Source of the DNA: an uncultured Eubacteriales bacterium
Lineage (GTDB): Bacteria > Bacillota > Clostridia > Oscillospirales > CAG-272
Assembly (NCBI GenBank): GCA_934525675.1
Contig: CAKSZH010000004.1
Location: 91,905 to 155,904 of the forward strand
Length of the DNA: 64,000 nt
Direction: 5' to 3'
Below, piece after piece: positions 4,904 through 64,000 of the stretch. How positions within the stretch are numbered: position 1 is the stretch's first letter; every line of letters starts with the position of its first letter. The translations under genes were made by a program, and so were the position numbers. Below the pieces are notes generated by a model. That model did no database searches. It was not told the DNA's origin and worked only from the letters and a program-made list of their open reading frames with translations.

Positions 4904-4915
4904 CGGCGGTGAGCG

Positions 4916-5121
4916 ACGGGAATCGGGGGATCCGGTAACGGAAAATCCACGGCAACAGAAGCTTACCACGGTGACGGGAAATCCCACGATAGCAGACAAT
5001 CGCTACGTTGACGGGAAATCTTACAGCAACAGGGAATCGCCGCGGCTACGAAGAATCTCACGGTATCAGACAATCATCACGGCTACGGGAAAACGCACGA
5101 TAGCAGAGGATCGCCGCGGCA
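4916..5121 (+). repeat. tandem array of five 36-37-nt units plus one truncated unit, non-coding
   Basis: Units at 4938-4973, 4974-5010, 5011-5047, 5048-5084 and 5085-5121. Consensus ACGGGAAATCNCACGRTAGCAGACAATCGCCGCGGCT. The units are contiguous, with no spacers. Confidence 0.85.
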
Positions 5122-5311
5122 AGTGGAAGTCCCCCGGCGGCAGGCAAACGTTATGCAAAGGGGAGCCCCGGCGGCGGGACATCGCGTGGCATTGCCCGGT
5201 GAGCGGGGGAGCATTTGCTCCCGCGTACACGCCCGTCTGATCCGGATTTACGGCCGCGAGCGGTTTTCTGAAGTTCCCGCAGCCACGGCAGTTTCCCGGC
5301 AAAAAGTGCAG

Positions 5312-5340
5312 AAAACCACCCACCTGACGGGTGGTTTTTT
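5312..5340 (+). terminator. intrinsic terminator closing the aroK tail
   Basis: AAAACCACCC / 7-nt loop / GGGTGGTTTTTT. Confidence 0.8.
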
Positions 5341-5400
5341 GATCTGCGGAAACGCCTTTGCCGGTTTCCGCGCAAAAGTCCGTCTTACCCGGACGGAAAA

Positions 5401-5436
5401 GGGGCACAGGGGATCCGTCCGGATCCCCTGTGCCCC
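5401..5436 (-). terminator. hairpin terminator downstream of the YhgE/Pip-like gene
   Basis: 17-nt perfect inverted repeat GGGGCACAGGGGATCCG/CGGATCCCCTGTGCCCC. A TTTT tail follows on the minus strand. Confidence 0.7.
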
Positions 5437-5454
5437 TCGTTGATGGACGGGAGT

Positions 5455-7551: not shown

Positions 7552-7554
7552 GGT

Positions 7555-7785
7555 TTATTCCTCCTCATCCGACGCCCCGTCGGATTCCTTGGTTTCTTCC
7601 GCCCCGCAATCCGGGCAATCGCTGCCGGGTACCGGCTCTGCGACCCCGTCGGCGGATCCGGCTTCTGCAAGTGGGGCTTTCTTTGCGGCGGAACGGTGCA
7701 GTTTCGCGCACAGCATTCCGGCGATACCTCCCACGGCGCACACAGCGCCGGCGGCGATGAACAGTTTCTTATAACAGGATTTCAT
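7555..7785 (-). CDS. small single-TM protein with an acidic C-terminal tail
   Basis: Strong AAGGAGG RBS 8 nt upstream. Hydrophobic helix FIAAGAVCAVGGIAGMLCA. Its stop is 3 nt from the next start, suggesting operon coupling. Confidence 0.6.
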   Translation of the reverse strand: MKSCYKKLFIAAGAVCAVGGIAGMLCAKLHRSAAKKAPLAEAGSADGVAEPVPGSDCPDCGAEETKESDGASDEEE

Positions 7786-7824
7786 GATTCGGTTCCTCCT
7801 TGAATAACGGTTGTAATGGTTGCG

Positions 7825-9933
7825 TTAAGTGCCGGAGTCTTGCGGCGTTTCCTTTTGCTTTCTGCATTTCTTCATGCCGAAGGTGGTTGCACAGACGATC
7901 GGGTCACACAGAAGCAGGAGCGCAGGCAGAATGAAAATGACGCACAGCATACTGATAACGGCGCCTCTTGCCATCAGCATACACATGGAGCTGATGATGT
8001 CGATATCGGAATACACGGCGACGCCGAAGGTTGCGGCGAACAGTCCCATGCCCGAGACGATGATGGACGGGAAGGACGAGGAGAGCGCCGTTGTGACGGC
8101 GGAGCGTTTGTCCGCGCCGAGCATCCGCTCGGATTTGTAACGGGTGGTCATGAGGATCGCGTAGTCCACCGTTGCGCCGAGCTGAATGGTGCTGATACAG
8201 ATGGGAGCGATGAAGGGAAGCGACTGACCGAGGTAGTGCGGAATGCCGAGGTTGATGAAGATGGCAAGCTCGATCACGGCAATGAGGATGAAGGGCAGGC
8301 TGAAGCTCTTTTCCACAAACGCGATGATGAGGAAGATCGCCACAATGGAGATGGCGTTGACAACCTGGAAGTCATGTCCCGTCGTTTCGATCATGTCCTT
8401 CATGCAGGGCGCTTCGCCGATCAGCATTCCCGAGGGATCGTATTTCTTGACGATCTGATTGAGCGAGGTGATCTGGTCGTTGACCTTGTCGCTTGCGACT
8501 TTGTATTCCGAGTTGATGAGGAGCAGTTCCCACTTGTCGCTCTTCAGAATGGAGGTGATGCTCTCGGGCAGAATCTCCTCCGGCACCAGAGAACCGACGA
8601 CGGATTCCAGCCCCAGTACGTATTTGACGCCGTCCACCTGTTCCATTTCCTTTATCATGGACCGCACCGCCTTCCCGGACAGGTGAGAGTCCACAAGAAC
8701 CATGTGGGTGGACGCAATGTTGAATTCTTCGGACAGCTTGGAGTTTGCAATGACGTATTCCATGTCCTCCGGCAGGCACTGTCCCATGTCGTAGTAGACC
8801 TCGTCGTTGGTCTTCTGATAGCCGTAAAGCGCGGGGGTAATCAGAAGCGCGAAGATCACAAGGAAGATGGGGAAGCACCTGACCACTCCTCCGGCAAATT
8901 TCTTCATGTCCGGAATGATGGAGCGGTGCTTGGTCTTTTGCAGGGGCTTGTCGAAAATGAGGATCATGGACGGAAGAACCGTTACGCAACCGAGCACGCC
9001 GAGCAGGACACCCTTTGCCATGACCAGTCCGAGGTCACGTCCCAGCGTGAAGCTCATGAAGCACAGCGCCGCAAAGCCCGCGATGGTGGTGACGGACGAG
9101 CCGACGACCGAGGTCAGGGTCTTGTGAATGGCGTTTGCCATGGCTTCGTACTTGTCGCTTGTCAGGTTGCGTTCCTCATTGTAACTGTGCCAGAGGAAGA
9201 TGGAGTAGTCCATGGTGACCGCAAGCTGAAGCACGGCGGAGAGCGCCTTGGTAATATAGGAAATCTCCCCGAAGAAATAGTTGGTGCCGAGGTTCAGAAG
9301 AATCATCATGCCGATGGAGGCAAGGAAGACGAACGGAACCAGCCAGCCGTCGAGGAAAAGCAGCATGGCGACCAGTGCCAGCACAACAGCGATGGCAACG
9401 TAGATCGGTTCCTCTTTTTCACACAGGTCCTTGAGGTCGGTGACGAGCGCGGACATGCCGGAAACAAAGCACTGCTTGCCGGTGATGGAACGGATTTCGC
9501 GGATCGCGTCCATCGTGACCTCCTCGGAGGTCGCGCTGTCAAAGAAGACGGCAATCATGGTGGAGTGGTCGGTGTTGAATTCCCGGTAAATTTCTTCCGG
9601 CAGGATCTCCATGGGGATGGAGATATCCGCGAGCGAGTTGTACCAGAGAACCGTTTCCACGTGATCCACAGTCTTGATCTTTTCGGTCAGGGCGGCGACA
9701 TCACGCTCGGACATGTCCTCCACGATGATGAAGGAAAACGCCCCCTTGCCGAACTCCTGCATGAGTACGTCCTGTCCGATGACGGTGTCCATGTCGGACG
9801 GCAGGTAATCGAGCATGTCGTAGTTGATGCGGGTGCCGATCATGCCGAATGCCGACGGAATGATGAGCAGAAGGGCAAGGATCAGAATGGGGATGCGGTA
9901 CTTGACGACCGCTTTGGCAAATCGCATGGTCAT
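7825..9933 (-). CDS. MMPL-family (RND superfamily) transporter
   Basis: 702 aa with two 6-TM bundles and two extracytoplasmic loops. MMPL-like N-terminus (RIPILILALLLIIPSAFG ... YDMLDYLP). Confidence 0.85.
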   Translation of the reverse strand: MTMRFAKAVVKYRIPILILALLLIIPSAFGMIGTRINYDMLDYLPSDMDTVIGQDVLMQEFGKGAFSFIIVEDMSERDVAALTEKIKTVDHVETVLWYNSLADISIPMEILPEEIYREFNTDHSTMIAVFFDSATSEEVTMDAIREIRSITGKQCFVSGMSALVTDLKDLCEKEEPIYVAIAVVLALVAMLLFLDGWLVPFVFLASIGMMILLNLGTNYFFGEISYITKALSAVLQLAVTMDYSIFLWHSYNEERNLTSDKYEAMANAIHKTLTSVVGSSVTTIAGFAALCFMSFTLGRDLGLVMAKGVLLGVLGCVTVLPSMILIFDKPLQKTKHRSIIPDMKKFAGGVVRCFPIFLVIFALLITPALYGYQKTNDEVYYDMGQCLPEDMEYVIANSKLSEEFNIASTHMVLVDSHLSGKAVRSMIKEMEQVDGVKYVLGLESVVGSLVPEEILPESITSILKSDKWELLLINSEYKVASDKVNDQITSLNQIVKKYDPSGMLIGEAPCMKDMIETTGHDFQVVNAISIVAIFLIIAFVEKSFSLPFILIAVIELAIFINLGIPHYLGQSLPFIAPICISTIQLGATVDYAILMTTRYKSERMLGADKRSAVTTALSSSFPSIIVSGMGLFAATFGVAVYSDIDIISSMCMLMARGAVISMLCVIFILPALLLLCDPIVCATTFGMKKCRKQKETPQDSGT

Positions 9934-10526
9934 GGGTCCTCTCTTTCTTTGGATTCGCCCTCGATGACATCGGGTCTCTGATGGCGAATGATTTTGACGG
10001 TGATGAGCATGGTGCAGATGTTGAGCAGTCCCTCCCAGAGGAGGGTGATGCCGTACAGGACCGTCATGACCTGTACGCTTTCATCCGGGCGGAGAATGAG
10101 CAAAAATCCGAACACCCCGGTTAGGATTGCGGAGGCAAGGATCAGCCACCATTGACGGACCCCAAAGGTTCTCGCGTCGATGGAGATCTGCGTTTTGAAC
10201 AGACTGTCCGCCAGCACCAGAATGCCGATGAGACTGCACATCAGGGTCATTGCACGGACGGGACGGATGAGGAGCGCGGTTCCGATGAGAACCGTCAGGA
10301 TCCCGCTGGCAAGGTCGTACTGAAACGCAAGCCGGAACAGATCTCTTGAGAAATACCCCACCAGCTTGACGATACCGAAGACGATGAGGGTCACTCCGCA
10401 GACGATCCCGACCACGCGGACGGAAATGTCCGGCACGCAGATGAGGCAGATGCCGAGCGCGGTCAGCAGAACCGAAATACCGATGTATCCGATTTTTGCA
10501 ATCCGCATGGGAGCGGTGGAACGCAT
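9930..10526 (-). CDS. HdeD/DUF308-family membrane protein
   Basis: Six predicted TM helices. AGGAAG RBS before ATG 10526. ATGA stop/start overlap with the MMPL gene. The ORF-track start 10721 was trimmed. Confidence 0.65.
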   Translation of the reverse strand: MRSTAPMRIAKIGYIGISVLLTALGICLICVPDISVRVVGIVCGVTLIVFGIVKLVGYFSRDLFRLAFQYDLASGILTVLIGTALLIRPVRAMTLMCSLIGILVLADSLFKTQISIDARTFGVRQWWLILASAILTGVFGFLLILRPDESVQVMTVLYGITLLWEGLLNICTMLITVKIIRHQRPDVIEGESKEREDP

Positions 10527-42110: not shown

Positions 42111-42334
42111 AGATCGGTTTCCTCCGTTTCTGCTTCGGTTTACTGCTCCTATTATATCTGAACTCCGTGAACTAAATGTTAACGGTCGGAAGGAGGTAGC
42201 CTCCGTAAAAAAACATACATCGGGCAGGAACAATTCCGGGACTGTATCGTCAGAAAGTATGGAATGACAGGATCGTTCCGTATGTAAGCCCCGGAGAGCC
42301 CGGCTGTATCATCCACAAGAAAAGGAGATTGACT

Positions 42335-43582
42335 ATGAAAAAACTGCTGATTTCGGTATCCTGTATCTGGCTTGCCCTCCTGCTTTGCCTCGGGCTTGCT
42401 TCCTGTACGCTTCAGGTTCACGCAGAGAACCTTGCCGAAGGGTACAGCCGGCAGACGGACGACGCGGGAGCGGTCACAGAGGACGGATCGCGCGCCCTCA
42501 TCGACTATTCCTTTGACCTTTTCCGCAAGACGGGCGGGGAACACCTGAATGCCGGGAAGAACGAGCTTTTGTCGCCTCTGTCTGCCGCGGCGGTGCTTGC
42601 CATGATTGCAAACGGCGCGGAGGGAGAGACGCTTGCCCAGCTTGAAACGCTGCTCGGCGCCGACCGTGACGCGCTCAACCGGTATTACTACGCCTTTTTC
42701 GGCGGGCTTTCCTCCACGGACAAATGCAAGGTGACCTATGCGGATTCCGTCTGGTTCCGCGAGGGACAGATCAATGTCCGCCCGGAATTTTTGCAGGCGA
42801 ACGCCGATTGGTTCGGTGCAGACGCCTATGCCGCTCCTTTCGATGCGTCCACCGTGAAGGATATCAATACCTGGGTGAAAAAGAACACGGACGGCATGAT
42901 CGACTCGATCCTCGATCGCATTGACGCGGATTCGGTCATGTATCTCATCAATACGCTGGTGTTCGACGCAAAGTGGGAAACGCTGTACGAAAAGAACCAG
43001 ATTTCGGACGGGGAATTCACCTCTTCTGACGGCATCCGGCGGACGGTGACCTATCTTTCCTCCACCGAAAACAAATACCTGTCCGGCGACGGCTTTGTCG
43101 GCTTTGCCAAGAATTACGACGGCGGGAAATACAGCTTCTGCGCCCTGCTCCCCGACGAGGGGACGGAGATCGGAGAGTTTGTTTCGTCGCTTTCGGGAGA
43201 AAAATTCCTTGATGCATGGCAGGGGAAGACCTCGGAGAGCGTTCTTGTCCGTCTGCCGGAGTTCAGATTTGAAGGCGGCGGGGAACTGAACGACGCGCTG
43301 AAATCCCTCGGTGTGACCGACCTGTTTGCGCCGGGCATCGCGGATCTTTCCGGAATCAACACGGCGGGCGGACTGTATTGTGCAAAGATTGCGCAGAAGA
43401 CGGTCATTGATGTCAGCCGCAACGGGACCAAAGCGGCGGCGGTCACGTGGGGAGGTATAAAAGAACAGGGCGCACCGATGGGACAGCACGAGGTGTACCT
43501 CACCCGTCCCTTTGTGTTCGCAATTGTGGACAACGCGACAGGCGTGCCGCTCTTCCTCGGCGCGGTGACCCGGCTCGGATAA
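42335..43582 (+). CDS. serpin-family serine protease inhibitor, predicted lipoprotein
   Basis: Lipobox LGLASC. Serpin core and an inhibitory-type hinge GTKAAAVT before the ...RPFVFAIVD C-terminus. AAGGAG RBS 7 nt before ATG 42335. Confidence 0.85.
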   Translation: MKKLLISVSCIWLALLLCLGLASCTLQVHAENLAEGYSRQTDDAGAVTEDGSRALIDYSFDLFRKTGGEHLNAGKNELLSPLSAAAVLAMIANGAEGETLAQLETLLGADRDALNRYYYAFFGGLSSTDKCKVTYADSVWFREGQINVRPEFLQANADWFGADAYAAPFDASTVKDINTWVKKNTDGMIDSILDRIDADSVMYLINTLVFDAKWETLYEKNQISDGEFTSSDGIRRTVTYLSSTENKYLSGDGFVGFAKNYDGGKYSFCALLPDEGTEIGEFVSSLSGEKFLDAWQGKTSESVLVRLPEFRFEGGGELNDALKSLGVTDLFAPGIADLSGINTAGGLYCAKIAQKTVIDVSRNGTKAAAVTWGGIKEQGAPMGQHEVYLTRPFVFAIVDNATGVPLFLGAVTRLG

Positions 43583-46747: not shown

Positions 46748-47758
46748 ATGGCACAGTTTGAAGGTTATGAAAGACGCGAGGCGAAGATCCTCGGCGTTCT
46801 GAAGGAATACGGAATCAACTCGATCGACGAGTGCAAGGAGATCTGCGACAAGTACGGCATTGATCCCTACACCACGGTTCAGGAAACCCAGCCGATCTGC
46901 TTTGAGAACGCGAAGTGGGCGTACACCGTCGGCTCCGCAATCGCACTGAAGGAGGCGGAAAAGACGGGCGACAAGTCCGCAGCAACCGCTGCCGCAAATA
47001 TCGGTATCGGACTCCAGAGCTTCTGCATTCCCGGCTCCGTTGCGGAAAACCGCAAGGTGGGTCTCGGTCACGGCAACCTCGGCAAGATGCTTCTCTCCGA
47101 GGAAACCGATTGCTTCTGCTTCCTCGCAGGTCACGAGTCCTTCGCGGCTGCTGAGGGTGCAATCAAGATCGCGCTCAACGCGAACAAGGTCCGTAAGAAC
47201 CCCCTGCGCGTCATTCTGAACGGTCTCGGCAAGGACGCGGCTTACATCATCTCCCGTATCAACGGCTTTACCTACTGCAAGACCGTGTTCGATCCGTACA
47301 CGGAAACCGTCAAGGTCGTCGAGGAGAAGGCATTCTCCAAGGGACCCCGTGCCGCAGTCAAGTGCTACGGCGCAGACAACGTTCCAGAAGGCGTTGCGAT
47401 TATGCAGCTTGAGAAGGTCGGCGTTTCCATCACCGGTAACTCCACCAACCCGACCAGATTCCAGCATCCCGTTGCCGGCACCTACAAGAAGTGGTGCATC
47501 GAGAACGGCAAGAAGTACTTCTCCGTGGCATCGGGCGGCGGCACGGGCAGAACCCTGCACCCCGATAACATGGCAGCAGGTCCTTCCTCCTACGGCATGA
47601 CCGATACCATGGGCAGAATGCATTCCGACGCACAGTTCGCAGGTTCCTCCTCGGTTCCCGCGCACGTCGAAATGATGGGCCTCATCGGCATGGGCAACAA
47701 CCCGATGGTCGGTGCGACCGTCGCCTGCGCTGTCGCTGTCGCGGAAGCGCTGAAGTAA
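46748..47758 (+). CDS. GGGtGRT-family protein (conserved, function unknown)
   Basis: Contains the family-naming motif SGGGTGRTLHPDN. Begins 19 nt after the NifU-like gene. Confidence 0.8.
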   Translation: MAQFEGYERREAKILGVLKEYGINSIDECKEICDKYGIDPYTTVQETQPICFENAKWAYTVGSAIALKEAEKTGDKSAATAAANIGIGLQSFCIPGSVAENRKVGLGHGNLGKMLLSEETDCFCFLAGHESFAAAEGAIKIALNANKVRKNPLRVILNGLGKDAAYIISRINGFTYCKTVFDPYTETVKVVEEKAFSKGPRAAVKCYGADNVPEGVAIMQLEKVGVSITGNSTNPTRFQHPVAGTYKKWCIENGKKYFSVASGGGTGRTLHPDNMAAGPSSYGMTDTMGRMHSDAQFAGSSSVPAHVEMMGLIGMGNNPMVGATVACAVAVAEALK

Positions 47759-51202: not shown

Positions 51203-51242
51203 ATTGAATATTTATTCCAACCTGGATGAATATTTATGTACA
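51203..51242. promoter_or_regulatory. distal pair of ARG boxes (ArgR/AhrC operator)
   Basis: ATTGAATATTTATTCCAA and GATGAATATTTATGTACA, compared with the consensus WNTGAATWWWWATTCANW. The boxes are 4 bp apart. Confidence 0.65.
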
Positions 51243-51318: not shown

Positions 51319-51357
51319 ATTGAAAATATATTCAGAATGATGTATACTGTATTCAGA
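51319..51357 (+). promoter_or_regulatory. argG sigma-A promoter overlapped by a proximal ARG box and a half-box
   Basis: TTGAAA (51320-51325), 17-nt spacer, TATACT (51343-51348). Box ATTGAAAATATATTCAGA matches the consensus well. A second TATTCA lies 21 nt downstream. Confidence 0.7.
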
Positions 51358-51392: not shown

Positions 51393-52628
51393 ATGGATAA
51401 GAAAGAAATCAAGAAAATCGTACTCGCCTATTCGGGAGGACTGGATACCTCCATCATCATCCCGTGGCTGAAGGAAAATTACAACAATCCGGAGATCATC
51501 GCGGTTTCCGGAAATGTCGGACAGGCGGACGAGCTGGAGGGACTGGAAGAGAAGGCGCTGAAGACCGGCGCGTCCAAGCTGTACATTGAGGATCTGACCG
51601 ATGAATTCGTCAACGAGTGCATCATTCCCTGCGTCAAGGCGGGCGCGAAATACGAGGAATATATGCTCGGCACCTCGCTGGCGCGTCCCGTGATTGCAAA
51701 GCGGCTCGCGGAGATCGCCCTCAGAGAGGGCGCCGATGCCATCTGCCACGGTTGTACCGGAAAGGGCAATGACCAGGTGCGGTTTGAACTCACCATCAAG
51801 GCGTTCGCGCCCGATATGAAGATTATCGCGCCGTGGCGGGAGTGGTCCATCAAGTCACGCGAGGAAGAGATTGAATACGCCGAGGCGCATAACGTCCCGC
51901 TCAAGATCAACCGCGAGACCAACTATTCCAAGGACAAGAATCTCTGGCACCTGTCCCATGAGGGACTGGATCTGGAGGACGCGGGCAACGAGCCGCTCTA
52001 TGAGAAGCCCGGCTTCCTTGAAATGGGTGTGTCCCCGATCGACGCGCCGGACGAAGCAACCTATGTGACGCTGGACTTTGAAGCGGGCGTTCCCGTTGCC
52101 ATCGACGGCGAAAAGATGAGCGCGAAGAACATCATTCTGAAGCTCAACGAGCTGGGCGGCAGGAACGGCATCGGTCTTCTGGACATCGTGGAGAACCGTC
52201 TTGTCGGCATGAAGTGCCGCGGCGTGTATGAAACGCCCGGCGGAGCGATCCTGTATTTCGCTCATAATTATCTGGAGACCCTGTGCCTTGACAAGATGAC
52301 GGCACACGAAAAGGAACGCCTTGCCGTAACCTTTGCGGAACTGACCTACAACGGGCAGTGGTACACCCCTCTGCGCGAGGCGTTGTCCGCGTTTGTTGAC
52401 AAAACGCAGGAGCATGTTACGGGAAAGGTTCGGATCAAGCTGTATAAGGGCAATATGATCAAGGCGGGCGCGTGGAGCGACTGGTCGCTGTATTCCGAGG
52501 AAATCGCAACCTTCGGAGAGGATCATGTCTACGATCAGAAGGACGCCGCCGGCTTCATCAATCTTTACGGTCTGCCGATCAAGGTGCAGGCTCAGATTGC
52601 GGCAAAGAACGCGAAGAACAAGCAGTAA
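51393..52628 (+). CDS. argG: argininosuccinate synthase
   Basis: [10 protein letters not shown]-loop-like motif and [14 protein letters not shown]. Confidence 0.95.
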
Positions 52629-52790: not shown

Positions 52791-52903
52791 GTCGTTCCGA
52801 GGGAGAGCGGAGGGTTTTCGCCGGAAGAGGGAAACGCAGAAAAAAGTTGACCGGCGTCCGGCTTACTCCCGGATGGGCGGCAAAAAACAACGGAGTAACA
52901 GAT

Positions 52904-53833
52904 ATGAAGATCTTTATTGACGGCAGTGCCGGAACGACGGGACTGCGGATCCACGAGCGGCTCGGCAAGAGAAGTGACCTTTCACTGATCACTCTCGGTG
53001 AGGCGGAGCGCAAGGACGCGTCCGCCCGCCGGGAGGCGCTGAACCGGGCGGATGTGGTGTTTCTTTGCCTGCCGGACGACGCGGCAAGGGAAGCGGTCTC
53101 CATGGTGGAGAATCCGGATACGGTCATTCTCGATACCTCTACGGCGCATCGAACGGCGGACGGCTGGGCATACGGTTTTCCCGAGCTGTCGGCGGCACAC
53201 CGGGAACGCGTCACGCATTCGCGGCGCATCGCGGTACCCGGCTGCCATGCCAGCGGATTCATCGCGCTGGTTTACCCGCTTGTCGAAGCGGGGATCCTTG
53301 CGCCCTCCGTTCCGCTTTCCTGCTTCAGCCTTACCGGATACAGCGGCGGCGGAAAGAAAATGATCGCCGCGTATGAGTCCTCCGACCGGGACCCGCTTCT
53401 CGGTGCGCCGAGAATCTACGGGCTGTCGCAGGTACATAAGCATCTGCCCGAAATGAAGGCGGTGACGGGACTGGATGCGCCGCCCGTATTCTGCCCGACC
53501 GTTGCGGATTTTTACTCCGGAATGCTTGTGACCGTTCCGCTGTCCGCGTCCCTGCTTGCCCCCGGCAAAACGGCGGATGACGTAAGAGCGGCGCTCTCTG
53601 CGAAATACCGGGGAGAGATCGTCCGGTATTGCGAGGACGCGGACGAAACGGGATTTTTGTCCGCCGCGGCGCTTTCCGGGAAGGATTCCATGGAGATTTC
53701 CGTATTCGGAAACGACGAGCGTATCCTGCTCGCGGCAAGATATGACAATCTTGGCAAGGGCGCATCGGGAGCGGCGGTGGAATGCCTTAACCTTTTGCTC
53801 GGTGCCGGGGAAACGACGGGGCTTGTGCTGTAA
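52904..53833 (+). CDS. argC: N-acetyl-gamma-glutamyl-phosphate reductase (short type)
   Basis: MKIFIDGSAGTTGL, active-site PGCHASG. Start trimmed from ORF-track 52472 to ATG 52904 (GGAG RBS). Confidence 0.9.
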   Translation: MKIFIDGSAGTTGLRIHERLGKRSDLSLITLGEAERKDASARREALNRADVVFLCLPDDAAREAVSMVENPDTVILDTSTAHRTADGWAYGFPELSAAHRERVTHSRRIAVPGCHASGFIALVYPLVEAGILAPSVPLSCFSLTGYSGGGKKMIAAYESSDRDPLLGAPRIYGLSQVHKHLPEMKAVTGLDAPPVFCPTVADFYSGMLVTVPLSASLLAPGKTADDVRAALSAKYRGEIVRYCEDADETGFLSAAALSGKDSMEISVFGNDERILLAARYDNLGKGASGAAVECLNLLLGAGETTGLVL

Positions 53834-53948: not shown

Positions 53949-55163
53949 ATGAATATCATTGAAGGCGGCGTCTGCGCCGCAAAAGGGTTTACGGCAAACG
54001 GGATCCATGCGGGAATCCGCAAGAACAAGGAAAAACGCGACCTGTCGCTCATTCTGAGCGAATGCCGTGCGCACGCTGCCGCTGTTTATACGACCAACCT
54101 TGTCAAGGGCGCACCGCTGACGGTGACGAAAAAGCACCTGTCCGACGGCTTTGCACAGGCGGTCATCTGCAACAGCGGCAACGCCAACACCTGCAACGCA
54201 AACGGCGTTGAGGTCGCCGAGGAAATGAGCGCTCTTGCCGCAAAGCAACTCGGAATCGACCCGTCCGACGTCGTGGTGGCGTCCACCGGCGTCATCGGTC
54301 AGCCGCTTGACATCACGCCCATCCGGGACGGAATTCCCGCGCTGGTCGCGGGGCTGGGCAAGGACAACAGCGGACTTGCCGCCGAGGGCATCATGACGAC
54401 GGATACCAAGAAAAAGGAGATCGCCGTCAGCTTCACCGTGGGCGGCAAGGAATGCCGCATCGGCGGGATCGCAAAGGGCTCCGGCATGATCCACCCCAAC
54501 ATGGCGACCATGCTGGTGTTTCTCACGACCGACTGCGCAATTTCCGCGGAACTGCTCTCCCGTGCGCTTTCCTCCGACGTGCAGAATACCTTCAACATGG
54601 TCAGCGTGGACGGCGATACCTCCACCAACGATATGGTGACGATTCTTGCCAACGGGATGGCGGGGAACCCCGAGATCACCGGCGAGGGAGAGGATTTTTC
54701 CGAATTCATGAAGGCGCTCAACACCGTGACGGTGTACCTCTGCCGCAGGATTGCGGGAGACGGCGAAGGCGCGACCAAGCTGCTGGAATGCCGCGTGGAC
54801 GGCGCGTGCAGTGAGGCAAACGCGAAGGCGGTCGCCAAATCCGTCATCTGCTCGTCGCTCACCAAGGCGGCGATGTTCGGCGCCGACGCCAACTGGGGGC
54901 GCGTGCTTTGCGCCATCGGTTACAGCGGGGTGCTCGTGGACGTTTCCCGCGTGGATGTCAGTTTTTCTTCTGCAAAGGGAGAGATTCTCGTCTGTAAAAA
55001 CGGCGCGGGCGTGGAATTTTCCGAGGAAAAGGCAAAGGAGATTCTTCTGGAAAGTGAGATCTCCATTCTGATCTCGCTCCACATGGGAGAAGCGACCGCC
55101 ACGGCGTGGGGGTGTGATCTGACCTACGATTACGTCCGCATCAACGGCGACTACCGCACCTGA
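53949..55163 (+). CDS. argJ: bifunctional glutamate N-acetyltransferase / amino-acid acetyltransferase
   Basis: GFTANGIHAGI, autoprocessing-site region ATMLVFLTTD. AAGGAG RBS before ATG 53949. Confidence 0.92.
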   Translation: MNIIEGGVCAAKGFTANGIHAGIRKNKEKRDLSLILSECRAHAAAVYTTNLVKGAPLTVTKKHLSDGFAQAVICNSGNANTCNANGVEVAEEMSALAAKQLGIDPSDVVVASTGVIGQPLDITPIRDGIPALVAGLGKDNSGLAAEGIMTTDTKKKEIAVSFTVGGKECRIGGIAKGSGMIHPNMATMLVFLTTDCAISAELLSRALSSDVQNTFNMVSVDGDTSTNDMVTILANGMAGNPEITGEGEDFSEFMKALNTVTVYLCRRIAGDGEGATKLLECRVDGACSEANAKAVAKSVICSSLTKAAMFGADANWGRVLCAIGYSGVLVDVSRVDVSFSSAKGEILVCKNGAGVEFSEEKAKEILLESEISILISLHMGEATATAWGCDLTYDYVRINGDYRT

Positions 55164-55236
55164 CGTGCCGCCGGGTTCCGTCCTGCCGCAGGAAGAAATC
55201 GGGGCTGCAACGAGACAGAGCAAGAAAAGAGGAAAC

Positions 55237-56115
55237 ATGATGGACATTACCAATGCACAGCGCGCCAAAATACTGGTCGAAGCGCTTCCGTATATTCAGA
55301 ATTACACCGGCAAGATCATTGTCATCAAATACGGCGGGAACGCCATGGTCAGCGAAGAACTCAAGAACCAGGTGATGGAGGACATCGTACTTCTGTCGCT
55401 GGTCGGGGTCAAGGTCGTGCTGGTGCACGGCGGCGGTCCGGAGATCACCGATCTGCTGTCCAAGATCGGCAAGAAGAGCGAATTCGTGGACGGACTCCGC
55501 GTGACCGACAAGGAGACGGCGGACGTGGTGCAGATGGTGCTTGCGGGCAAGGTCAACAAGAGCCTTGTCAACCTGATTGGGGTCAAGGGCGGCTCGGCAA
55601 TGGGCATTTCCGGTATCGACGATCACCTCATCGAAGCCGAGTCCAAGGACGAGCGGCTCGGGTACGTCGGACAGATCACCTCGGTCAATGTCCGCCCCGT
55701 GATGGATCTTCTGGAGCACGGATACATCCCCGTCATTTCCACCGTTGCCTGCGACAGAGAGGGAAATGTATACAACATCAACGCCGACACCGCGGCGGCA
55801 TATATCGCGGGAGCGATGCGCGCGGAAAGTCTCATCACCATGACGGACATCGCGGGGATCTTACGCGACCGGGATGACCCTTCGTCGCTCATCCCCTGCA
55901 TCGACCTTGCCGAAGCGGATCAACTGTTTTGTGACAAGGTGATCTCCGGCGGCATGATCCCCAAGGTGGAATGCTGTATCGAGGCAATTCACCGCGGCGT
56001 CAGAAAGGTCGTCATCATGGACGGACGCGTGCCGCACGCGATCCTGATCGAAACGCTGACCGACGAGGGCGCCGGCACGATGGTCGTGGAGGATAAGAAC
56101 AATGGACATTTTTGA
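55237..56115 (+). CDS. argB: acetylglutamate kinase
   Basis: VIKYGGNAM and VLVHGGGPEI motifs. Start trimmed to ATG 55237. Confidence 0.92.
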   Translation: MMDITNAQRAKILVEALPYIQNYTGKIIVIKYGGNAMVSEELKNQVMEDIVLLSLVGVKVVLVHGGGPEITDLLSKIGKKSEFVDGLRVTDKETADVVQMVLAGKVNKSLVNLIGVKGGSAMGISGIDDHLIEAESKDERLGYVGQITSVNVRPVMDLLEHGYIPVISTVACDREGNVYNINADTAAAYIAGAMRAESLITMTDIAGILRDRDDPSSLIPCIDLAEADQLFCDKVISGGMIPKVECCIEAIHRGVRKVVIMDGRVPHAILIETLTDEGAGTMVVEDKNNGHF

Positions 56116-57268
56116 GCGGGATGCGGAATACATCGCCCACACCTATGCGCGGTTTCCCCTGGAGATCGTCGGCGGTAAGGGGTCGCTTGTGTACGGCGCG
56201 GACGGAAAAGAATACATCGACATGGGCGCGGGGATCGCGGTCAATACCTTCGGTATTGCGGACGACGAATGGACCCGGGCGGTAACGGAGCAGCTCGGCA
56301 GGTTCCAGCACACCTCCAATCTCTATTATTCCGAGCCGTGCGTGCGGCTTGCGGAGGCGCTGTGCGGGCGGACCGGTATGAAGCGGGTGTTCTTCTCGAA
56401 TTCCGGAGCCGAGGCAAATGAGTGCGCCATCAAGGCGGCGCGCAAGTACGCCCACGACAAAAAGGGCGCGGACTGCTACTATATTCTGACGCTCCGCAAC
56501 AGCTTCCACGGCAGGACGCTTACCACGCTTGCGGCAACGGGACAGGACGTGTTCCACAAGGACTATCTGCCGCTTACACCGGGCTTTGTTTATGCCGATG
56601 CGAACGACCTTTCCTCTGTCCGGGCGGCGGTGAAGGAGTATCCCGTCGCGGCGATCCTGTTTGAGGCGGTGCAGGGTGAGGGCGGCGTTCTGCCCCTCAC
56701 TGCGGAGTTTGCGCGGGGACTCTCCGACATTGCCGGGGAGGAGGACATTCTGCTCATCGCCGACGAGGTACAGATCGGCAACGGCAGAAGCGGGATGCTT
56801 TACGGCTACATGAATTTCGGAATTACCCCCGACATTGTGACCACCGCCAAGGGAATCGGCGGCGGTCTTCCCATCGGTGTGACCATGCTCGGTGAGAAGG
56901 TCAAAAATATCTTCTCCCCCGGCGACAACGGCTCCACCTTCGGCGGAAACCCTGTTGCCGCGGCGGGAGCGTACAACATTCTGTCAAGACTGGACGACGA
57001 TTGCCTTGCGGGTGTCAGAGAACGCTCGGCATACATCCGGGAAGAACTGACGGGCGCAAAAGGCATCAATCGCGTAACAGGTATGGGGCTGATGCTCGGT
57101 ATCGACGCGTCTCGCGGCGCGTCGGCAGTCGTGGCGGGCTGCATGGAGCGCGGTGTTCTGGTGCTCAGGGCAAAGGACAAGGTCCGTCTTCTGCCGGCGC
57201 TTAATATCCCGACGGAGCTTCTGAAGCGCGCCGTCGCGGTCATCAAAGAAGTTTGCGGAGGATGCTGA
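56102..57268 (+). CDS. argD: acetylornithine aminotransferase
   Basis: Class-III aminotransferase with [18 protein letters not shown] and the PLP-Lys region TTAKGIGGG. Confidence 0.92.
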
Positions 57269-57269
57269 C

Positions 57270-58265
57270 ATGAATCTTGAAGGAAGAGATTTTCTCAAGC
57301 TGCTCGACTATACCCCGGAGGAAATCGCGGGGCTGATTGACCTTGCGGCACAACTCAAGGCAAAGAAAAAGGCGGGCATTCCTCACAGGCTGTGCGAGGG
57401 AAAGAATGTCGCTCTGATTTTCGAGAAGACCAGTACCCGTACCCGGTGCGCCTTTGAGGTCGCTGCACGCGATCTCGGCATGGGAGCGACTTATCTGGAC
57501 CCCTCCGGTTCGCAGATCGGCAAAAAGGAAAGCATTGCCGACACCGCGCGGGTACTTTCCCGGATGTTTGACGGTATCGAGTACCGCGGATTCGGGCAGA
57601 GCATTGTGGAGGAGCTTGCAAAATACGCGACGGTCCCCGTGTGGAACGGACTCACCGACGAGTTTCACCCGACCCAGATTTTAGCGGATTTCCTCACCAT
57701 CCGGGAGCATTTCGGACGCCTTGCGGGAATCAATTTTGTGTACATGGGCGACGCGAGATACAATATGGGCAACTCGCTCATGGTGGGCTGTGCCAAGATG
57801 GGGATGCATTTCACCGCCTGCGCCCCGAAGAAGTATTTCCCCGATCCCGCACTCGTGGAGGAGTGCCGCAGGATTGCCGCGACGACGGGCGCCACGCTGA
57901 CCTTTGAGACCGACCCCGGGAAAGCCGTGCCGGGCGCGGATGTCCTCTATACCGACATCTGGGTCTCCATGGGCGAGCCGGTGGAGGTCTGGGAGGAGCG
58001 CATCCGCGATCTGTCCCCCTATCAGGTCAACTCCGCGTTGATGAAGGCGGCGGGGGAGAATGCCGTATTCATGCACTGCCTGCCGTCCTATCACGATCTG
58101 AAGACAAAGATCGGACGCGAAATGGGCGAGCGGTTCGGACGGGACTCGATGGAAGTGACCGACGAAGTGTTCGAGAGCCCCGCCTCCATCGTATTTGACG
58201 AGGCGGAAAACCGGATGCACACCATCAAGGCGGTCATGGCGGCAACGCTCGGCGCGTCGCTCTGA
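57270..58265 (+). CDS. argF: ornithine carbamoyltransferase
   Basis: [13 protein letters not shown] and HCLP motifs. Confidence 0.93.
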
Positions 58266-58417: not shown

Positions 58418-59497
58418 ATGAAAAAACGTTATCTGGTATTGGCGGACGGAAGCATCTTTCCCGGCGAGGCGTTCGGCGCGGACGTATCCGCAATCGGCGA
58501 GGCGGTCTTCACCACGGGAATGTGCGGATACCTCGAAACCCTGACCGACCCCAGCTATTACGGGCAGATCGTGCTCCAGACCTTTCCTCTCATCGGCAAC
58601 TATGGCGTGATCCCGGAGGATTTTGAAGGGAAGTGCCATGTGCGGGGTTATGTGGTACGCGAGGTATGCGGCACGCCGTCCAATTTCCGTTCCCGCGGAA
58701 CGCTGGATGCGTTTCTCCGGGAAAACGGTGTTCCCGGCATTTCCGGCGTGGATACCCGCGAAATCACAAGAAAACTCCGCGAGTGCGGCGTGATGAACGC
58801 GTATCTCACCGACGAGGACCCGACGGGCAAGCCGGTCCCTCCGGAGGTACTTTCCTATACCGTACACGACGCGGTGAAGAGTGTGAGTGCGGATGCGGTC
58901 AGGGAATATCCCGCCGTGGGAACGGAAAAGTACCATGTCGTTCTCATGGATTTCGGTGCGAAGAAAAACATTGTCCGCGAGCTTTGCCGCCGCGGTTGCC
59001 GTGTGACGGCGGTTCCGGGTAACACTTCATCCGAAGCGGTGCTGGCGCTTGCCCCCGACGGGGTGATGCTTTCCAACGGTCCCGGCGACCCGGCGGAAAA
59101 TACGGAAATCATCCGGGAGATCGCGGGACTGATCGGGCGCGTCCCCGTGTTCGGCATCTGTCTCGGACATCAGCTTTTTGCGCTGGCGCTCGGCGGAAAG
59201 ACCGTCAAATTGAAATACGGGCACAGAGGTGTCAATCAGCCCGTCCGCTGCCTTTCGGACGGCAGGACCTATATCACCAGCCAGAACCACGGCTATGCGG
59301 TACTGCCGCACACGGTGCCAGTGGGCGAAGAGAGCTTTGTCAACGCAAACGACGGAACGTCCGAGGGAATGGATTACCCGGAGCTGTGCGCCTTCACGGT
59401 GCAGTTTCACCCCGAAGCCGCGGCGGGACCGCACGATACGTGCTTTCTGTTCGACCGCTTTATTTCCATGATGGGAGGGAATACCGATGCCGATTGA
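58418..59497 (+). CDS. carA: carbamoyl-phosphate synthase small (glutaminase) subunit
   Basis: GICLGHQ catalytic Cys and HGYAV...QFHPEA. AGGAG RBS before ATG 58418. ORF-track start trimmed. Confidence 0.93.
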   Translation: MKKRYLVLADGSIFPGEAFGADVSAIGEAVFTTGMCGYLETLTDPSYYGQIVLQTFPLIGNYGVIPEDFEGKCHVRGYVVREVCGTPSNFRSRGTLDAFLRENGVPGISGVDTREITRKLRECGVMNAYLTDEDPTGKPVPPEVLSYTVHDAVKSVSADAVREYPAVGTEKYHVVLMDFGAKKNIVRELCRRGCRVTAVPGNTSSEAVLALAPDGVMLSNGPGDPAENTEIIREIAGLIGRVPVFGICLGHQLFALALGGKTVKLKYGHRGVNQPVRCLSDGRTYITSQNHGYAVLPHTVPVGEESFVNANDGTSEGMDYPELCAFTVQFHPEAAAGPHDTCFLFDRFISMMGGNTDAD

Positions 59498-62400
59498 TAC
59501 ATCTGTGAGAAAAACGCTCGTCATCGGCTCCGGTCCCATTGTGATCGGGCAGGCGGCGGAATTCGACTATGCGGGCGCGCAGGCGTGCCGCGTTCTGAAG
59601 GAGGCGGGGGTCAATGTCGTCCTCGTCAACTCCAACCCCGCGACCATCATGACCGACCGCGTGATGGCGGACGAAATTTACCTGGAACCGCTCACCGAAG
59701 AAACGGTCGGGCGCATCATCGAAAAGGAAAAGCCGGACAGCCTGCTCGCAGGACTCGGCGGGCAGACGGGTCTGACGCTTGCCATGAAGCTCTATGAAAA
59801 AGGCTTTCTGCAATCCCACGGCGTGCGCCTGATCGGTACCAACGTGGACGCAATCGAGCGCGCCGAGGACCGGGAACGTTTCAAGGAAACCATGGAGCAG
59901 ATCGGCGAGCCGGTCATCCCGTCGGACATCGCGGAGGACGTGGAAACGGCGGTACGGGTGGCAGAGCGGATCGGGTATCCCGTTATCATCCGCCCCGCCT
60001 ATACGCTCGGCGGCGCGGGCGGCGGTGTGGCGTACACCGAAGAGGAACTGCGCATCGCCGCGCATACGGGACTGGAAGCGTCGCCGATCACCCAGATCCT
60101 TGTGGAGAAGTACATCTTCGGCTGGAAGGAAATCGAGTTTGAGGTCATGCGCGACGCGATCGGTAACGTCATCGCGGTGTGCAGCATGGAAAACCTTGAT
60201 CCTGTCGGCATTCATACGGGCGACAGCATTGTGGTTGCACCGACGCTCACGCTTTCCGACAAGGAGTATCAGATGCTCCGCAGTGCATCGCTCAACATCA
60301 TTACGGCGCTCGGCATCGTCGGCGGGTGCAACTGTCAGTTTGCGCTGAACCCCGACAGCTTTGAATACGCGGTGATCGAGGTCAACCCCCGCGTGTCGCG
60401 GTCGTCCGCGCTTGCCAGCAAGGCGACGGGCTATCCGATTGCAAAAATGACGGCGAAAATCGCGCTCGGCTATACGCTGGACGAAATCAGAAACGACATC
60501 ACGGGCAAGACCTGTGCCTGCTTTGAACCGACGCTTGACTACGTGGTGGTCAAGGTACCCAAGTGGCCCTTTGACAAGTTTGCCGGCGCGAGCCGCAGGT
60601 TGGGGACCCAGATGAAGGCGACGGGCGAGGTCATGGCGATTGCGCCGTCCTTTGAAGCGGCGCTCCTCAAGGCGATCCGCGGTGCGGAGATCTCACTGGA
60701 CACCCTGAACGCCCCGCCGGTCTCGTCCGCACCGCTTACGGAGCGGCTTGCCACACCGGATGACCGCCGGATCTTTACGGTGTTTGAGGCGATCAGAAGC
60801 GGGATCAGCGTTGAAGAGATTCACGAAATCACACGTATCGACCGCTGGTTCCTCGAAAAGCTGAAGAAACTCGCCGGGTTTGAAGCGAGCCTTGCCGCCG
60901 ACGGGCTGACGGATGTTCTGTACGAAAGAGGGAAGCAGCTCGGTTACCCCGACGCGGCGCTGCTGCGGCTTTCCGGCGCGGAGAAGATTCCGTCCCCCCG
61001 CCACGCGGTCTACAAAATGGTGGACACCTGCGGCGCGGAATTCGACGCGGAAACGCCGTATTTTTATGCGACCTATGACCGCGTCTGTGAGTCGTGTGCT
61101 TTCCCGCGTTCTGGCAAACCCGTCGTTATCGTACTCGGCTCCGGTCCTATCCGGATCGGGCAGGGCATTGAATTCGACTATTCCTCCGTCCATTCGGTCA
61201 TGACGCTCAAGAAGCTTGGCTACGACGTGGTCATCATCAACAATAACCCGGAGACCGTCTCCACCGACTACGACACGGCGGACCGGCTGTATTTCGAGCC
61301 GCTGACCCCGGAGGACGTTATGAACGTCATCCGCGTGGAGCACCCGGTCGGCGTGGTGGTCGCGTTCGGCGGGCAGACGGCAATCAAGCTGACCGGCTAC
61401 CTCGACAAGGCGGGGATCCCGATCCTCGGCACCTCCGCCGACGGCATCGACCTTGCGGAGGACCGCGAACGCTTTGACGAACTGCTCGAAGGATTCGGCA
61501 TCCGCCGCCCGAAGGGCATGGGTGTGAGGACATTGGAGGAAGCGCTCGCGGCGGCGGATACGCTCGGCTATCCCGTGCTCCTGCGCCCGTCCTATGTCAT
61601 CGGCGGGCAGAATATGCAGATCGTACACAACGAACGGGAAGTGCGGCGGTACATGGAGCGTATCCTCGCGGGCGGCATTGAAAACCCCGTGCTGGTCGAT
61701 CAGTACCTGCCCGGCAAGGAGCTGGAGGTCGACGTGATTTCCGACGGGGAGGACGTGCTCATCCCCGGTATCATGCAGCACATTGAACGCGCGGGCGTAC
61801 ACAGCGGGGATTCCATCGCCGTTTATCCGCCGTACAGCATCAATGACCGCATGATCTCGGTGATCGCGGATTCCTCTAAAAAACTCGCGCTGGCGCTCGG
61901 TACCAAGGGACTTGTCAACATCCAGTATCTCATCTACGGCGGCGAGCTTTATGTGATTGAGGTCAATCCCCGCGCGTCGCGTACCGTGCCGTATATCAGC
62001 AAGGTGACGGGCGTTCCCATGGTGGATATCGCCTCCCGCGTCATGCTCGGGGAGAAACTGAGCACGATCGGCTGTGGCACGGGACTGTACCCGGTTCCGC
62101 CGTACTGTGCGGTCAAGGTACCGGTGTTCTCCTTTGAGAAACTGACCGACGCAAACTCGTATCTGGGACCGGAAATGAAGTCCACTGGCGAGGTGTTGGG
62201 AATCGGAAAGGATCTCGGCGAAGCGCTCTTCAAGGGACTGCTTTCCGCCGGTATGATCCTGCCCCCGGCACATAGGGGAGAGAAGGTCGGCTTCTTTGTC
62301 AGTGTGGACGAACACGACATGGGCGAGGTGGTCTCGCTTGCCAAGAAGCTGGACGATCTCGGGTTCCTCCTCTTTGCGACCAGGGACACCGCCGCGGCGA

Positions 62401-63524
62401 TCTCGACACTCGGCATCGACGTGACCGTTACGGACGCGATCGGGGACCGGGAAAGCACCTATGCGCTCCTGGAGAGCGGAAGGATCGGATATATCGTTTA
62501 CACGGGTGCGCTTCAGGATTCGACGCTGGACGATTACATCGCGCTCCATCGCCGCGCACTGCGCCTGTCCATCCCGTGCCTGACCTCGCTCGATACGGCG
62601 AACGCGCTCGCGGATATGCTCGCAAGCCGCTATACACCGTACAACACCGAGCTGATCGACATCAACCGGATGCGGGCGGCGCGCGAGAAACTGCACTTCT
62701 CCAAAATGCAGGGGTGCGGCGATGACTACATCTTCATCGAAAACTTTGACGGGAGAATCACCTCGCCGGAGTCGCTTTGCGTGAATCTTTGCCGCGCACA
62801 TTACGGCGTGGGGGCGGACGGGATCGTATTGATTGAAAAATCGGCGGTCGCAGACGCGAAGATGCGGATCTTCAACCGCGACGGAAGCGAAGGAAAAATG
62901 GCGGGCAACGCCATCCGGTCGGTCGGCAAGTACCTCTATGACAACGGCTATGTGACCTCCGACTGCCTGACGGTGGAAACGGGAAGCGGTATCCGTAACC
63001 TGACGCTATATACGAGCGGCGGCAAGGTCAGCTATGTGACGGTGGACATGGGACGGGTGGAGTTTTCCGCCCGGGCGCTTCCGACCACGCTTGACGGCGA
63101 CCGGATCATCGACCGCCCGCTTACGGTGGGCGGCAGGGAATACCATGTCACCTGCCTTTCGGTCGGCAACCCGCATTGCGTGGTGTTCTGCGACCGTGTG
63201 GATGCTGTGGAGGTCCCCATTGTCGGACCGCTCTTTGAATCGGCGCCCGAATTTCCGGAACGCATCAACACCGAGTTTGTCCGCGTGGTCAATCCGACGA
63301 CGCTCAGGATGCGCGTCTGGGAGAGAGGCAACGGCGAGACCTGGGCGTGCGGAACCGGTGCCTGCGCCGCGGTCGCGGCGGCAATCGCAAACGGGTATTG
63401 CAGGGAGGGAAGCGACGTGACTGTCAAGGTGCGCGGCGGTGATCTGGTCGTCCGCGTGGACGGCGACCGCGTGACGCTCTCGGGCGACACCCACCTCGTC
63501 TATGACGGCGTGCTGGAATACTGA
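59487..63524 (+). CDS. carB: carbamoyl-phosphate synthase large subunit fused in frame to a C-terminal DapF-like (diaminopimelate epimerase fold) domain
   Basis: Residues 1 to about 1061 form a full CarB (two ATP-grasp halves, oligomerisation domain, MGS-like domain). The frame continues without a stop into ...MRAAREKLHFSKMQGCGDDYIFIE...GETWACGTGA..., about 284 aa from nt 62670. Confidence 0.9.
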   Translation: MPIDTSVRKTLVIGSGPIVIGQAAEFDYAGAQACRVLKEAGVNVVLVNSNPATIMTDRVMADEIYLEPLTEETVGRIIEKEKPDSLLAGLGGQTGLTLAMKLYEKGFLQSHGVRLIGTNVDAIERAEDRERFKETMEQIGEPVIPSDIAEDVETAVRVAERIGYPVIIRPAYTLGGAGGGVAYTEEELRIAAHTGLEASPITQILVEKYIFGWKEIEFEVMRDAIGNVIAVCSMENLDPVGIHTGDSIVVAPTLTLSDKEYQMLRSASLNIITALGIVGGCNCQFALNPDSFEYAVIEVNPRVSRSSALASKATGYPIAKMTAKIALGYTLDEIRNDITGKTCACFEPTLDYVVVKVPKWPFDKFAGASRRLGTQMKATGEVMAIAPSFEAALLKAIRGAEISLDTLNAPPVSSAPLTERLATPDDRRIFTVFEAIRSGISVEEIHEITRIDRWFLEKLKKLAGFEASLAADGLTDVLYERGKQLGYPDAALLRLSGAEKIPSPRHAVYKMVDTCGAEFDAETPYFYATYDRVCESCAFPRSGKPVVIVLGSGPIRIGQGIEFDYSSVHSVMTLKKLGYDVVIINNNPETVSTDYDTADRLYFEPLTPEDVMNVIRVEHPVGVVVAFGGQTAIKLTGYLDKAGIPILGTSADGIDLAEDRERFDELLEGFGIRRPKGMGVRTLEEALAAADTLGYPVLLRPSYVIGGQNMQIVHNEREVRRYMERILAGGIENPVLVDQYLPGKELEVDVISDGEDVLIPGIMQHIERAGVHSGDSIAVYPPYSINDRMISVIADSSKKLALALGTKGLVNIQYLIYGGELYVIEVNPRASRTVPYISKVTGVPMVDIASRVMLGEKLSTIGCGTGLYPVPPYCAVKVPVFSFEKLTDANSYLGPEMKSTGEVLGIGKDLGEALFKGLLSAGMILPPAHRGEKVGFFVSVDEHDMGEVVSLAKKLDDLGFLLFATRDTAAAISTLGIDVTVTDAIGDRESTYALLESGRIGYIVYTGALQDSTLDDYIALHRRALRLSIPCLTSLDTANALADMLASRYTPYNTELIDINRMRAAREKLHFSKMQGCGDDYIFIENFDGRITSPESLCVNLCRAHYGVGADGIVLIEKSAVADAKMRIFNRDGSEGKMAGNAIRSVGKYLYDNGYVTSDCLTVETGSGIRNLTLYTSGGKVSYVTVDMGRVEFSARALPTTLDGDRIIDRPLTVGGREYHVTCLSVGNPHCVVFCDRVDAVEVPIVGPLFESAPEFPERINTEFVRVVNPTTLRMRVWERGNGETWACGTGACAAVAAAIANGYCREGSDVTVKVRGGDLVVRVDGDRVTLSGDTHLVYDGVLEY

Positions 63525-63554: not shown

Positions 63555-63583
63555 TTGCGAAAACGCCCCGGATCAGGTATAAT
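63555..63583 (+). promoter_or_regulatory. sigma-A promoter downstream of carB
   Basis: TTGCGA, 17-nt spacer, TATAAT. Confidence 0.65.
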
Positions 63584-63611: not shown

Positions 63612-63637
63612 AACCCCGGCGTCATGCCGGGGTTTTT
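63612..63637 (+). terminator. intrinsic terminator; ends the arg/car operon and/or a short transcript from the adjacent promoter
   Basis: AACCCCGGC / GTCAT / GCCGGGGTTTTT. Confidence 0.8.
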
Positions 63638-63643
63638 CGTAAC

Positions 63644-63719: not shown

Positions 63720-64000
63720 ATGCCGAAAACAGAGAGACAGGCGCACATCCGCAACTTTTCCATCATCGCGCACATCGATCACGGAAAATCCACGCTTGCC
63801 GACCGGATCCTGGAAGCGACGCGCACGGTCGAAAAGCGCGAAATGGAGGATCAGGTGCTTGACAATATGGATCTGGAGCGCGAGCGGGGCATCACCATCA
63901 AGGCGCGCGCGGTCAAGATCGACTACACCGCCCCCGACGGGGAAAACTATGTGCTCAACCTGATCGACACCCCCGGTCATGTGGACTTCAATTACGAGGT
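63720..64000 (+). CDS. lepA: elongation factor 4 (LepA), N-terminal fragment running off the window
   Basis: Not in the ORF track because it has no stop in the window. [38 protein letters not shown]...DTPGHVDF (G1 and G3 GTPase motifs). Confidence 0.93.

Follow-up and report, generated by a model that had tools for sequence, protein, structure and literature searches.

Diaminopimelate (DAP) epimerase, DapF, is a textbook example of two-cysteine catalysis that is also an antibiotic target, and single Cys-to-Ala mutants of it reportedly were inactive as epimerases in the work of Blanchard and Vederas. No epimerase activity is detectable when DapF is deprived of its catalytic cysteines (PMC6061791). 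In solved DapF complexes the two cysteines flank the carbon that reacts, no further base lies within 4 Å, and conserved residues bind DAP at its distal L-amino-acid end and at its proximal carboxylate (PMC12039745). DapF of Escherichia coli has a second role in that it regulates another enzyme, RppH, by binding to it (PMC6061791). Here, we describe a DapF-family domain that lacks the first of the two catalytic cysteines and is fused in frame to CarB, the large subunit of carbamoyl-phosphate synthase (CPSase). It is encoded in a 64,000-nt stretch of DNA (hereafter the window) from an uncultured Eubacteriales bacterium of the Oscillospirales lineage CAG-272 (assembly GCA_934525675.1, contig CAKSZH010000004.1, positions 91,905–155,904 of the forward strand). 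No report of a CarB–DapF fusion, or of a natural DapF without Cys73, was found in the full-text literature. The fold of DapF has been recruited to other amino acids in DcsC (O-ureidoserine racemase, 7vdy), histidine racemase, and PddB; these are described as enzymes that keep both cysteines and have a changed pocket, whereas the domain described here is the reverse.

The open reading frame (ORF) at 59487–63524 on the forward strand encodes 1,345 aa that comprise a complete CarB followed by a complete DapF-family domain. The CarB part (59487..62636, aa 1 to approximately 1050) contains two ATP-grasp halves, an oligomerization domain, and the MGS-like allosteric domain, that is, the full CarB set of Pfam domains (CPSase_L_D1/D2/D3 and MGS, the latter matching aa 947–1033). 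It matches the CarB equivalog model NF003671 over aa 1–1047 with 1,426 bits, well above the cut-off of 599, and scores 1,386 bits against TIGR01369; carA lies directly upstream. At the junction (62637..62693), the natural C-terminal tail of CarB (YNTELIDINR) and approximately eight further residues (MRAAREKL) precede the first strand of the DapF fold, and the sequence runs through ...YNTELIDINR|MRAAREKLHFSKMQGCGDDYIFIE with no stop codon, nt 62670 being in frame with 59487. The DapF-derived domain itself (62670..63524, 284 aa plus the stop codon) matches the DapF equivalog model TIGR00652 over aa 1070–1344 with 259–263.5 bits against a cut-off of 114.65, contains two matches to the Pfam model DAP_epimerase, and aligns to the solved DapF 2otn with an e value of 1e-64 and to 7vdy with an e value of 4e-29. 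It scores only 107.6 bits against NF038284, the Chlamydia-type bifunctional DapF/glutamate racemase, for which the cut-off is 350. An AlphaFold model of aa 930–1345 has a mean predicted local distance difference test score (pLDDT) of 89 and a predicted template modeling score (pTM) of 0.69, with pLDDT of approximately 90–97 over the DapF domain, and Foldseek superposes the modeled domain on the closed, ligand-bound DapF 9mro with a root-mean-square deviation of 1.6 Å and a TM score of 0.92, as expected of the two-domain DapF fold. In fold, length, and closed two-domain architecture the domain thus resembles the DapF proteins of TIGR00652 and of the structures 2otn, 9mro, 3ejx, and 4ijz. It is a genuine member of the DapF family by sequence and fold, yet it lacks the catalytic pair that defines that family.

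The initial annotation of this stretch had proposed the in-frame fusion and had suggested a survey of CarB lengths and C-terminal domains in related genomes as a check. The proposal is borne out by the uninterrupted ORF and by its relatives. The identical 1,345-aa protein is present on 15 independent contigs from NCBI, ENA, and Logan, and a search with the whole protein identified 120 full-length homologs that range from 1,339 to 1,354 aa and have 73–98% identity. A scan of GTDB, in which each species is represented by one genome, gave at least 598 relatives, and the counts of ORF state and of residues at Cys73 per species locus refer to the best 80 of these. All 80 have the CarB tail joined to a DapF-like domain; the ORF is uninterrupted over at least 1,320 aa in 61 and broken by a contig end in 18. 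The fusion is encoded by uncultured gut and rumen Oscillospirales and by other Clostridia, and the clusters at 90% identity include proteins attributed by name to Oscillibacter valericigenes and to a Dysosmobacter isolate. In public annotation the full protein is named carbamoyl-phosphate synthase large subunit and its fragments are named diaminopimelate epimerase. An alternative is that carB and dapF are distinct genes that only seem joined, owing to an indel or to a stop codon that was missed. No evidence for it was found, although some database records do list a separate 284-aa gene; all three of the free-standing 284-aa diaminopimelate epimerase records that were checked (L001, L087, and L088) are artifacts of an N gap or a contig start. 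Given the exact protein on 15 contigs and the unbroken ORFs of the species loci, this alternative is refuted, the probability left to it being negligible, and the fusion is not an assembly or sequencing artifact.

Alignment to E. coli DapF places Ala78 of the DapF-derived domain (GCG, 62901..62903, forward strand) at the position of Cys73 and Cys227 (TGC, 63348..63350, forward strand) at that of Cys217. The first thiol motif reads NRDGSEGKMAGNAIRS, with Ala in place of Cys73, and the second reads GETWACGTGACAA, so that one of the two catalytic cysteines of DapF is present and the other is not. The replacement is a property of the group. In a first survey of 121 sequences the Cys73 position was Ala in 115, Gly in six, and Cys in none, and among the 80 GTDB species loci it was Ala in 67, Gly in nine, Ser in one, and Cys in three. 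In contrast, all 128 canonical DapF representatives have Cys at this position, and Cys73 is the sole position invariant in these 128 representatives that is altered in the 131 sequences of the Ala/Gly type. The Cys217 equivalent is invariant in the same 131 sequences and in all non-Cys loci examined. Two DapF-length, unfused proteins also have odd catalytic residues, namely Cys/Ser (P0158) and Ser/Ser (P0234). On these comparisons the lack of the first thiol is a trait that is conserved and selected, and because of this it is well supported that the domain is not a classical two-base epimerase. The initial annotation had made the same three points, that the first catalytic cysteine is absent, that the second motif is intact, and that a classical two-base mechanism is doubtful; the first two agree with the alignments to the solved DapF proteins and to E. 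coli DapF, and the Ala in curated DapF that could have undermined the third was found in none of the canonical representatives.

The remainder of the active site is that of DapF. The residues that bind DAP (equivalents of N64, N157, N190, E208, R209, and N11) are retained in the window domain, the N11 equivalent being Asp there and Asn or Asp across the group, and so is the tyrosine needed for DapF dimerization. Within the non-Cys group the equivalents of N64, N157, H159, N190, E208, R209, C217, G218, and Y268 are 98–100% conserved; these are positions that hold the two ends of DAP in solved complexes (PMC12039745). Mean identity among the DapF domains is 59%, and approximately a dozen pocket residues are nonetheless conserved at this level. 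Because the pocket is intact, simple decay is ruled out. A related explanation is that the domain persists only as a weld to an essential enzyme and aids folding or assembly of CarB, ligand binding being irrelevant. Consistent with such a relic, the rate of the DapF part is slightly relaxed relative to CarB (the DapF/CarB rate ratio is 1.5 in non-Cys pairs and 1.2 in Cys pairs, of which there are only three), the dimerization tyrosine is kept, and a few sequences look decayed: P0160 and P0191 have no Cys217, and in L070 (10181–11023) an in-frame stop cuts the DapF-like domain short just before its end, which may reflect a decaying copy or a sequencing error. A relic would, however, be expected to drift at just those pocket residues that are the most constant, and we consider this explanation very unlikely.

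The intact pocket could also mean that the protein is a bifunctional CarB/DapF and the DAP epimerase of the cell, with water or another group replacing the thiol. The DAP pocket and Cys217 are as strictly conserved as in working enzymes, the score is far above the equivalog cut-off, the model superposes closely on closed DapF, and tblastn found no second dapF in the window and none within 10 kb at any of 82 loci. No replacement for the lost base was found near the Cys73 site, however. The group-specific cysteines C16 and C32 are not conserved, and N25, E56, and R205 (domain numbering), which became conserved together with the switch at Cys73, would by strand geometry lie at the far ends of strands, remote from the catalytic center. 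A classical epimerase is unlikely because DapF without its catalytic cysteines is inactive (PMC6061791) and because no compensating base was found; the solved enzyme likewise offers no basic residue within 4 Å of the thiols (PMC12039745), and the invariance of Cys73 in canonical DapF speaks against an active epimerase as well.

The closest relatives outside the non-Cys group include CarB–DapF fusions that have retained Cys73 (P0125, P0126, P0123, L072, L076, and L080), among them a full-length protein of 1,349 aa from an Oscillospiraceae metagenome-assembled genome (P0125). The fusions represented by P0125, L072, L076, and L080 are like the non-Cys fusions in domain order and in junction sequence, with 54% identity in the DapF part, but differ in that they keep the full catalytic pair and, in three of four contexts, are followed immediately by dapL. 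This gene, which encodes LL-diaminopimelate aminotransferase (TIGR03542, 507 bits against a cut-off of 365), is located at 11225–12406 in L076, 2626–3801 in L080, and 6985–8157 in L072; the fourth Cys-type genome does not have it there. The order carA–carB::dapF–dapL in these loci places CPSase and DAP synthesis together in a single transcription unit. The Cys-type fusions look like true bifunctional enzymes on this evidence, a point in favor of an active epimerase in their non-Cys relatives too, but the adjacency to dapL has been lost in the latter: dapL is absent downstream of the fusion in all 60 non-Cys loci for which at least 1.5 kb of sequence follows it. Because related fusions keep Cys73 and three of four lie beside dapL, whereas no non-Cys fusion does, the comparison suggests that loss of the thiol followed an originally bifunctional fusion. 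Ala-type and Cys-type fusions have in common the junction motif NTEL[VI]D[IL]N.[ML]R and the few residues that follow it, which argues for a single ancestral loss of the carB stop codon; the case for one fusion event rests on this shared junction. A neighbor-joining tree of this domain puts all non-Cys fusions of the main group together, with no Cys-type member among them, and gives no supported sister relation between Cys-type and non-Cys fusions. The nearest unfused canonical DapF is P0129. A divergent lineage of CarB-fused DapF domains (P0138 and P0170) that also has Ala at the Cys73 position falls outside the main group in the tree; its E202/F203 equivalents are changed (RANVSV), and its position may reflect a long branch, or the cysteine may have been lost there a second time.

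The arginine operon of the window ends with the fusion and has the order argG–argC–argJ–argB–argD–argF–carA–carB::dapF*, where the asterisk denotes the domain without the first thiol. All genes are on the forward strand: argG, encoding argininosuccinate synthase (51393..52628; Pfam Arginosuc_synth and Arginosuc_syn_C); argC (approximately 52850–53833, the start being approximate; Semialdhyde_dh); argJ (approximately 53991–55163, the start again approximate; ArgJ); argB (55165–56115; AA_kinase); argD (56102–57268; Aminotran_3); argF, encoding ornithine carbamoyltransferase (57270..58265; OTCace_N and OTCace); and carA, encoding the CPSase small subunit (58421..59497; CPSase_sm_chain and GATase; start inferred from MKKRYLVLADG), which overlaps the start of carB by 11 nt. 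Three ARG-box-like 14-mers on the forward strand upstream of argG (51205–51218, 51227–51240, and 51321–51334) likely form an ArgR/AhrC operator, and the third overlaps a promoter-like sequence on the same strand (TTGAAA-17-TATACT, 51320–51348). They are three of only four such matches in the whole window, and across loci boxes of this kind occur 1.58 times per kb in front of the first operon gene and 0.022 times per kb elsewhere, a difference of approximately 70-fold. The order argC-J-B-D-F-carA is conserved in most loci with enough upstream sequence. The operon would end at a terminator-like hairpin on the forward strand (AACCCCGGC-GUCAU-GCCGGGGUU followed by U5, 63612..63639), which has a folding energy of −21.4 kcal/mol (z = −2.9) and was not listed by an automated terminator scan. 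Between the stop codon of the fusion and this hairpin is a promoter-like sequence (TTGCGA-17-TATAAT, 63555–63583) upstream of lepA, which starts at 63721. No conserved partner gene is found downstream of the fusion, the commonest occurring in eight of 65 loci; a search with Rfam for riboswitches or other RNA elements gave only tRNAs; and Pfam scans of approximately 40 ORFs from the window revealed no lysine or DAP genes. Because its gene usually ends an arg operon that bears ARG boxes, the non-Cys domain would be corepressed with arginine synthesis, and control of this kind is unusual for a housekeeping enzyme of the cell wall. This poor fit adds to the loss of the dapL adjacency and to the unreplaced base, and we regard it as unlikely that the domain is the active epimerase of these bacteria.

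With respect to DapF, then, the fused domain is alike in its substrate-binding residues, its Cys217-type thiol, and its dimerization tyrosine, and differs in having Ala, Gly, or Ser for the Cys73-type base and in being covalently attached to CarB, usually expressed from an arginine operon and not located beside dapL. We tentatively favor, at less than even confidence, the reading that it is a nonepimerizing ligand-binding or regulatory module on CPSase that derives from a once bifunctional enzyme. Ligand binding without epimerization is proposed because the DAP pocket and the second cysteine are fully conserved. According to this reading, the domain would have started out as a working epimerase, and in an ancestor of gut and rumen Oscillospirales the stop codon of carB would have disappeared, joining it to CarB; loss of the Cys73-type base would have come afterward, probably on a single occasion, and would have persisted through a large radiation. 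The present domain would still bind DAP or a near-isosteric amino acid and close around it in the clamshell manner of DapF, with the two-base proton transfer left incomplete, and this may tune CPSase activity, or the oligomeric state through a DapF-type dimer contact, rather than supply meso-DAP. A ligand-binding or regulatory role on CPSase had been put forward in the initial annotation, and it is plausible in that it fits both the intact DAP pocket and the context of arginine operon and ARG boxes. The somewhat higher rate of the DapF part relative to CarB in non-Cys pairs also agrees with this reading. The regulation of RppH by E. coli DapF is similar in that DapF acts on another enzyme by contact (PMC6061791); it differs in that RppH is a separate protein and that DapF is an active epimerase, whereas in the present protein any such effect is hypothetical and would be exerted on the attached CarB. 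A more specific form of the idea is that the domain is a dedicated sensor in CPSase that binds either DAP or a near-isosteric amino acid of the arginine pathway, such as citrulline or ornithine, and that its closure or dimerization switches carbamoyl-phosphate synthesis. The α-amino-acid end of such a ligand would fit the conserved distal site. We consider a sensor of this kind rather unlikely.

Several observations weigh against a regulatory module on CPSase. First, the absolute conservation of Cys217 exceeds what a pure binding role would need and hints at chemistry. Second, no fixed docking on the allosteric domain is predicted, because the linker has a pLDDT of approximately 51 and the pTM is 0.69, and the allosteric domain of CarB has no excess of group-specific substitutions that would indicate coadaptation. 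Third, loci of the Oscillibacter and Dysosmobacter types contain carA–carB::dapF* only, with no arg operon and no ARG boxes. Fourth, bootstrap support in the neighbor-joining tree is weak, the non-Cys clade being recovered at approximately 50% and a clade of all fusions at 8%. Finally, one locus (L085) has kept the DapF domain alone after an apparent deletion of carAB, an arrangement that, if real, argues for a function independent of CarB. In this locus (4465–5855 of an ENA scaffold, and also on a second contig), argF ends ...YNMG and is followed by the last nine codons of carB and an intact Ala-type DapF domain with no intervening Ns; the sequence lacks carA, the 3' half of argF, and almost the whole of carB, which reflects either a real 5-kb deletion that spared the domain or a misassembly. 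A second case in which argF sequence abuts the tail of CarB is P0122, a protein of 512 aa that consists of the N-terminal domain of ornithine carbamoyltransferase, part of an MGS domain, and a Gly-type DapF domain, and that may be a deletion allele or a chimera.

If the remaining thiol does perform chemistry, the domain could be an enzyme that uses the Cys217-type thiol only and catalyzes a new reaction such as elimination, dehydration, or stereospecific protonation. One-base derivatives of racemase folds are known: in arylmalonate decarboxylase (Asp/Glu racemase family) and in trans-3-hydroxy-L-proline dehydratase (proline racemase family), a small or nonthiol residue stands in for one of the two mirror-image catalytic cysteines and the rest of the site is retained. 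These enzymes have remodeled pockets and known new substrates. Such dehydratases are among the Foldseek neighbors of the fused domain and provide a precedent in a related fold, and the occurrence of only small residues at position 73 next to an invariant Cys217, the new constraint at N25, E56, and R205, and the L085 arrangement, with its suggestion of a role without CarB, all agree with a one-base enzyme. Unlike those derivatives, however, the fused domain has an unchanged pocket and no known new substrate. Because the pocket is unchanged from that of DapF, DAP itself is the likely ligand, and DAP has no leaving group for an elimination; in addition, no candidate substrate is known in these bacteria and no downstream partner gene is conserved. 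We judge a new one-base reaction to be distinctly unlikely.

Elsewhere in the window, and apart from the fusion, a bacterial serpin gene is present at 42329–43582 on the forward strand (Pfam Serpin, e value of 2e-75), with a response regulator and a Clp-protease-family gene nearby. A GGGtGRT-family protein is encoded at 46748–47758 on the forward strand (Pfam PF14057, 634 bits), a family of unknown function. Two adjacent forward-strand ORFs of 787 and 721 aa (5440–7803 and 7816–9981) have no Pfam match at an e value of 1e-5 or less, and their coding strand is uncertain, given that the sequence is GC-rich and that long ORFs are also present on the opposite strand.

A large group of abundant gut and rumen bacteria thus encodes a one-cysteine DapF that is under strong selection and is welded to the enzyme that feeds arginine synthesis. 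Because the full protein is named as CarB and its fragments as diaminopimelate epimerase, automated reconstructions may miss DapF in carrier genomes or wrongly credit them with it. The question is directly testable, since cultured carriers exist (O. valericigenes and Dysosmobacter). If the fused domain is the only DapF of its carriers, it would be a natural exception to the accepted mechanism. If it is not, an enzyme domain would have been reused as a binding or regulatory module, with the working ancestral type, the Cys-type fusion beside dapL, still extant for comparison. A sensor, if that reading were true, would represent a previously unknown control of CPSase in which an enzyme became a receptor by the loss of a single catalytic atom.

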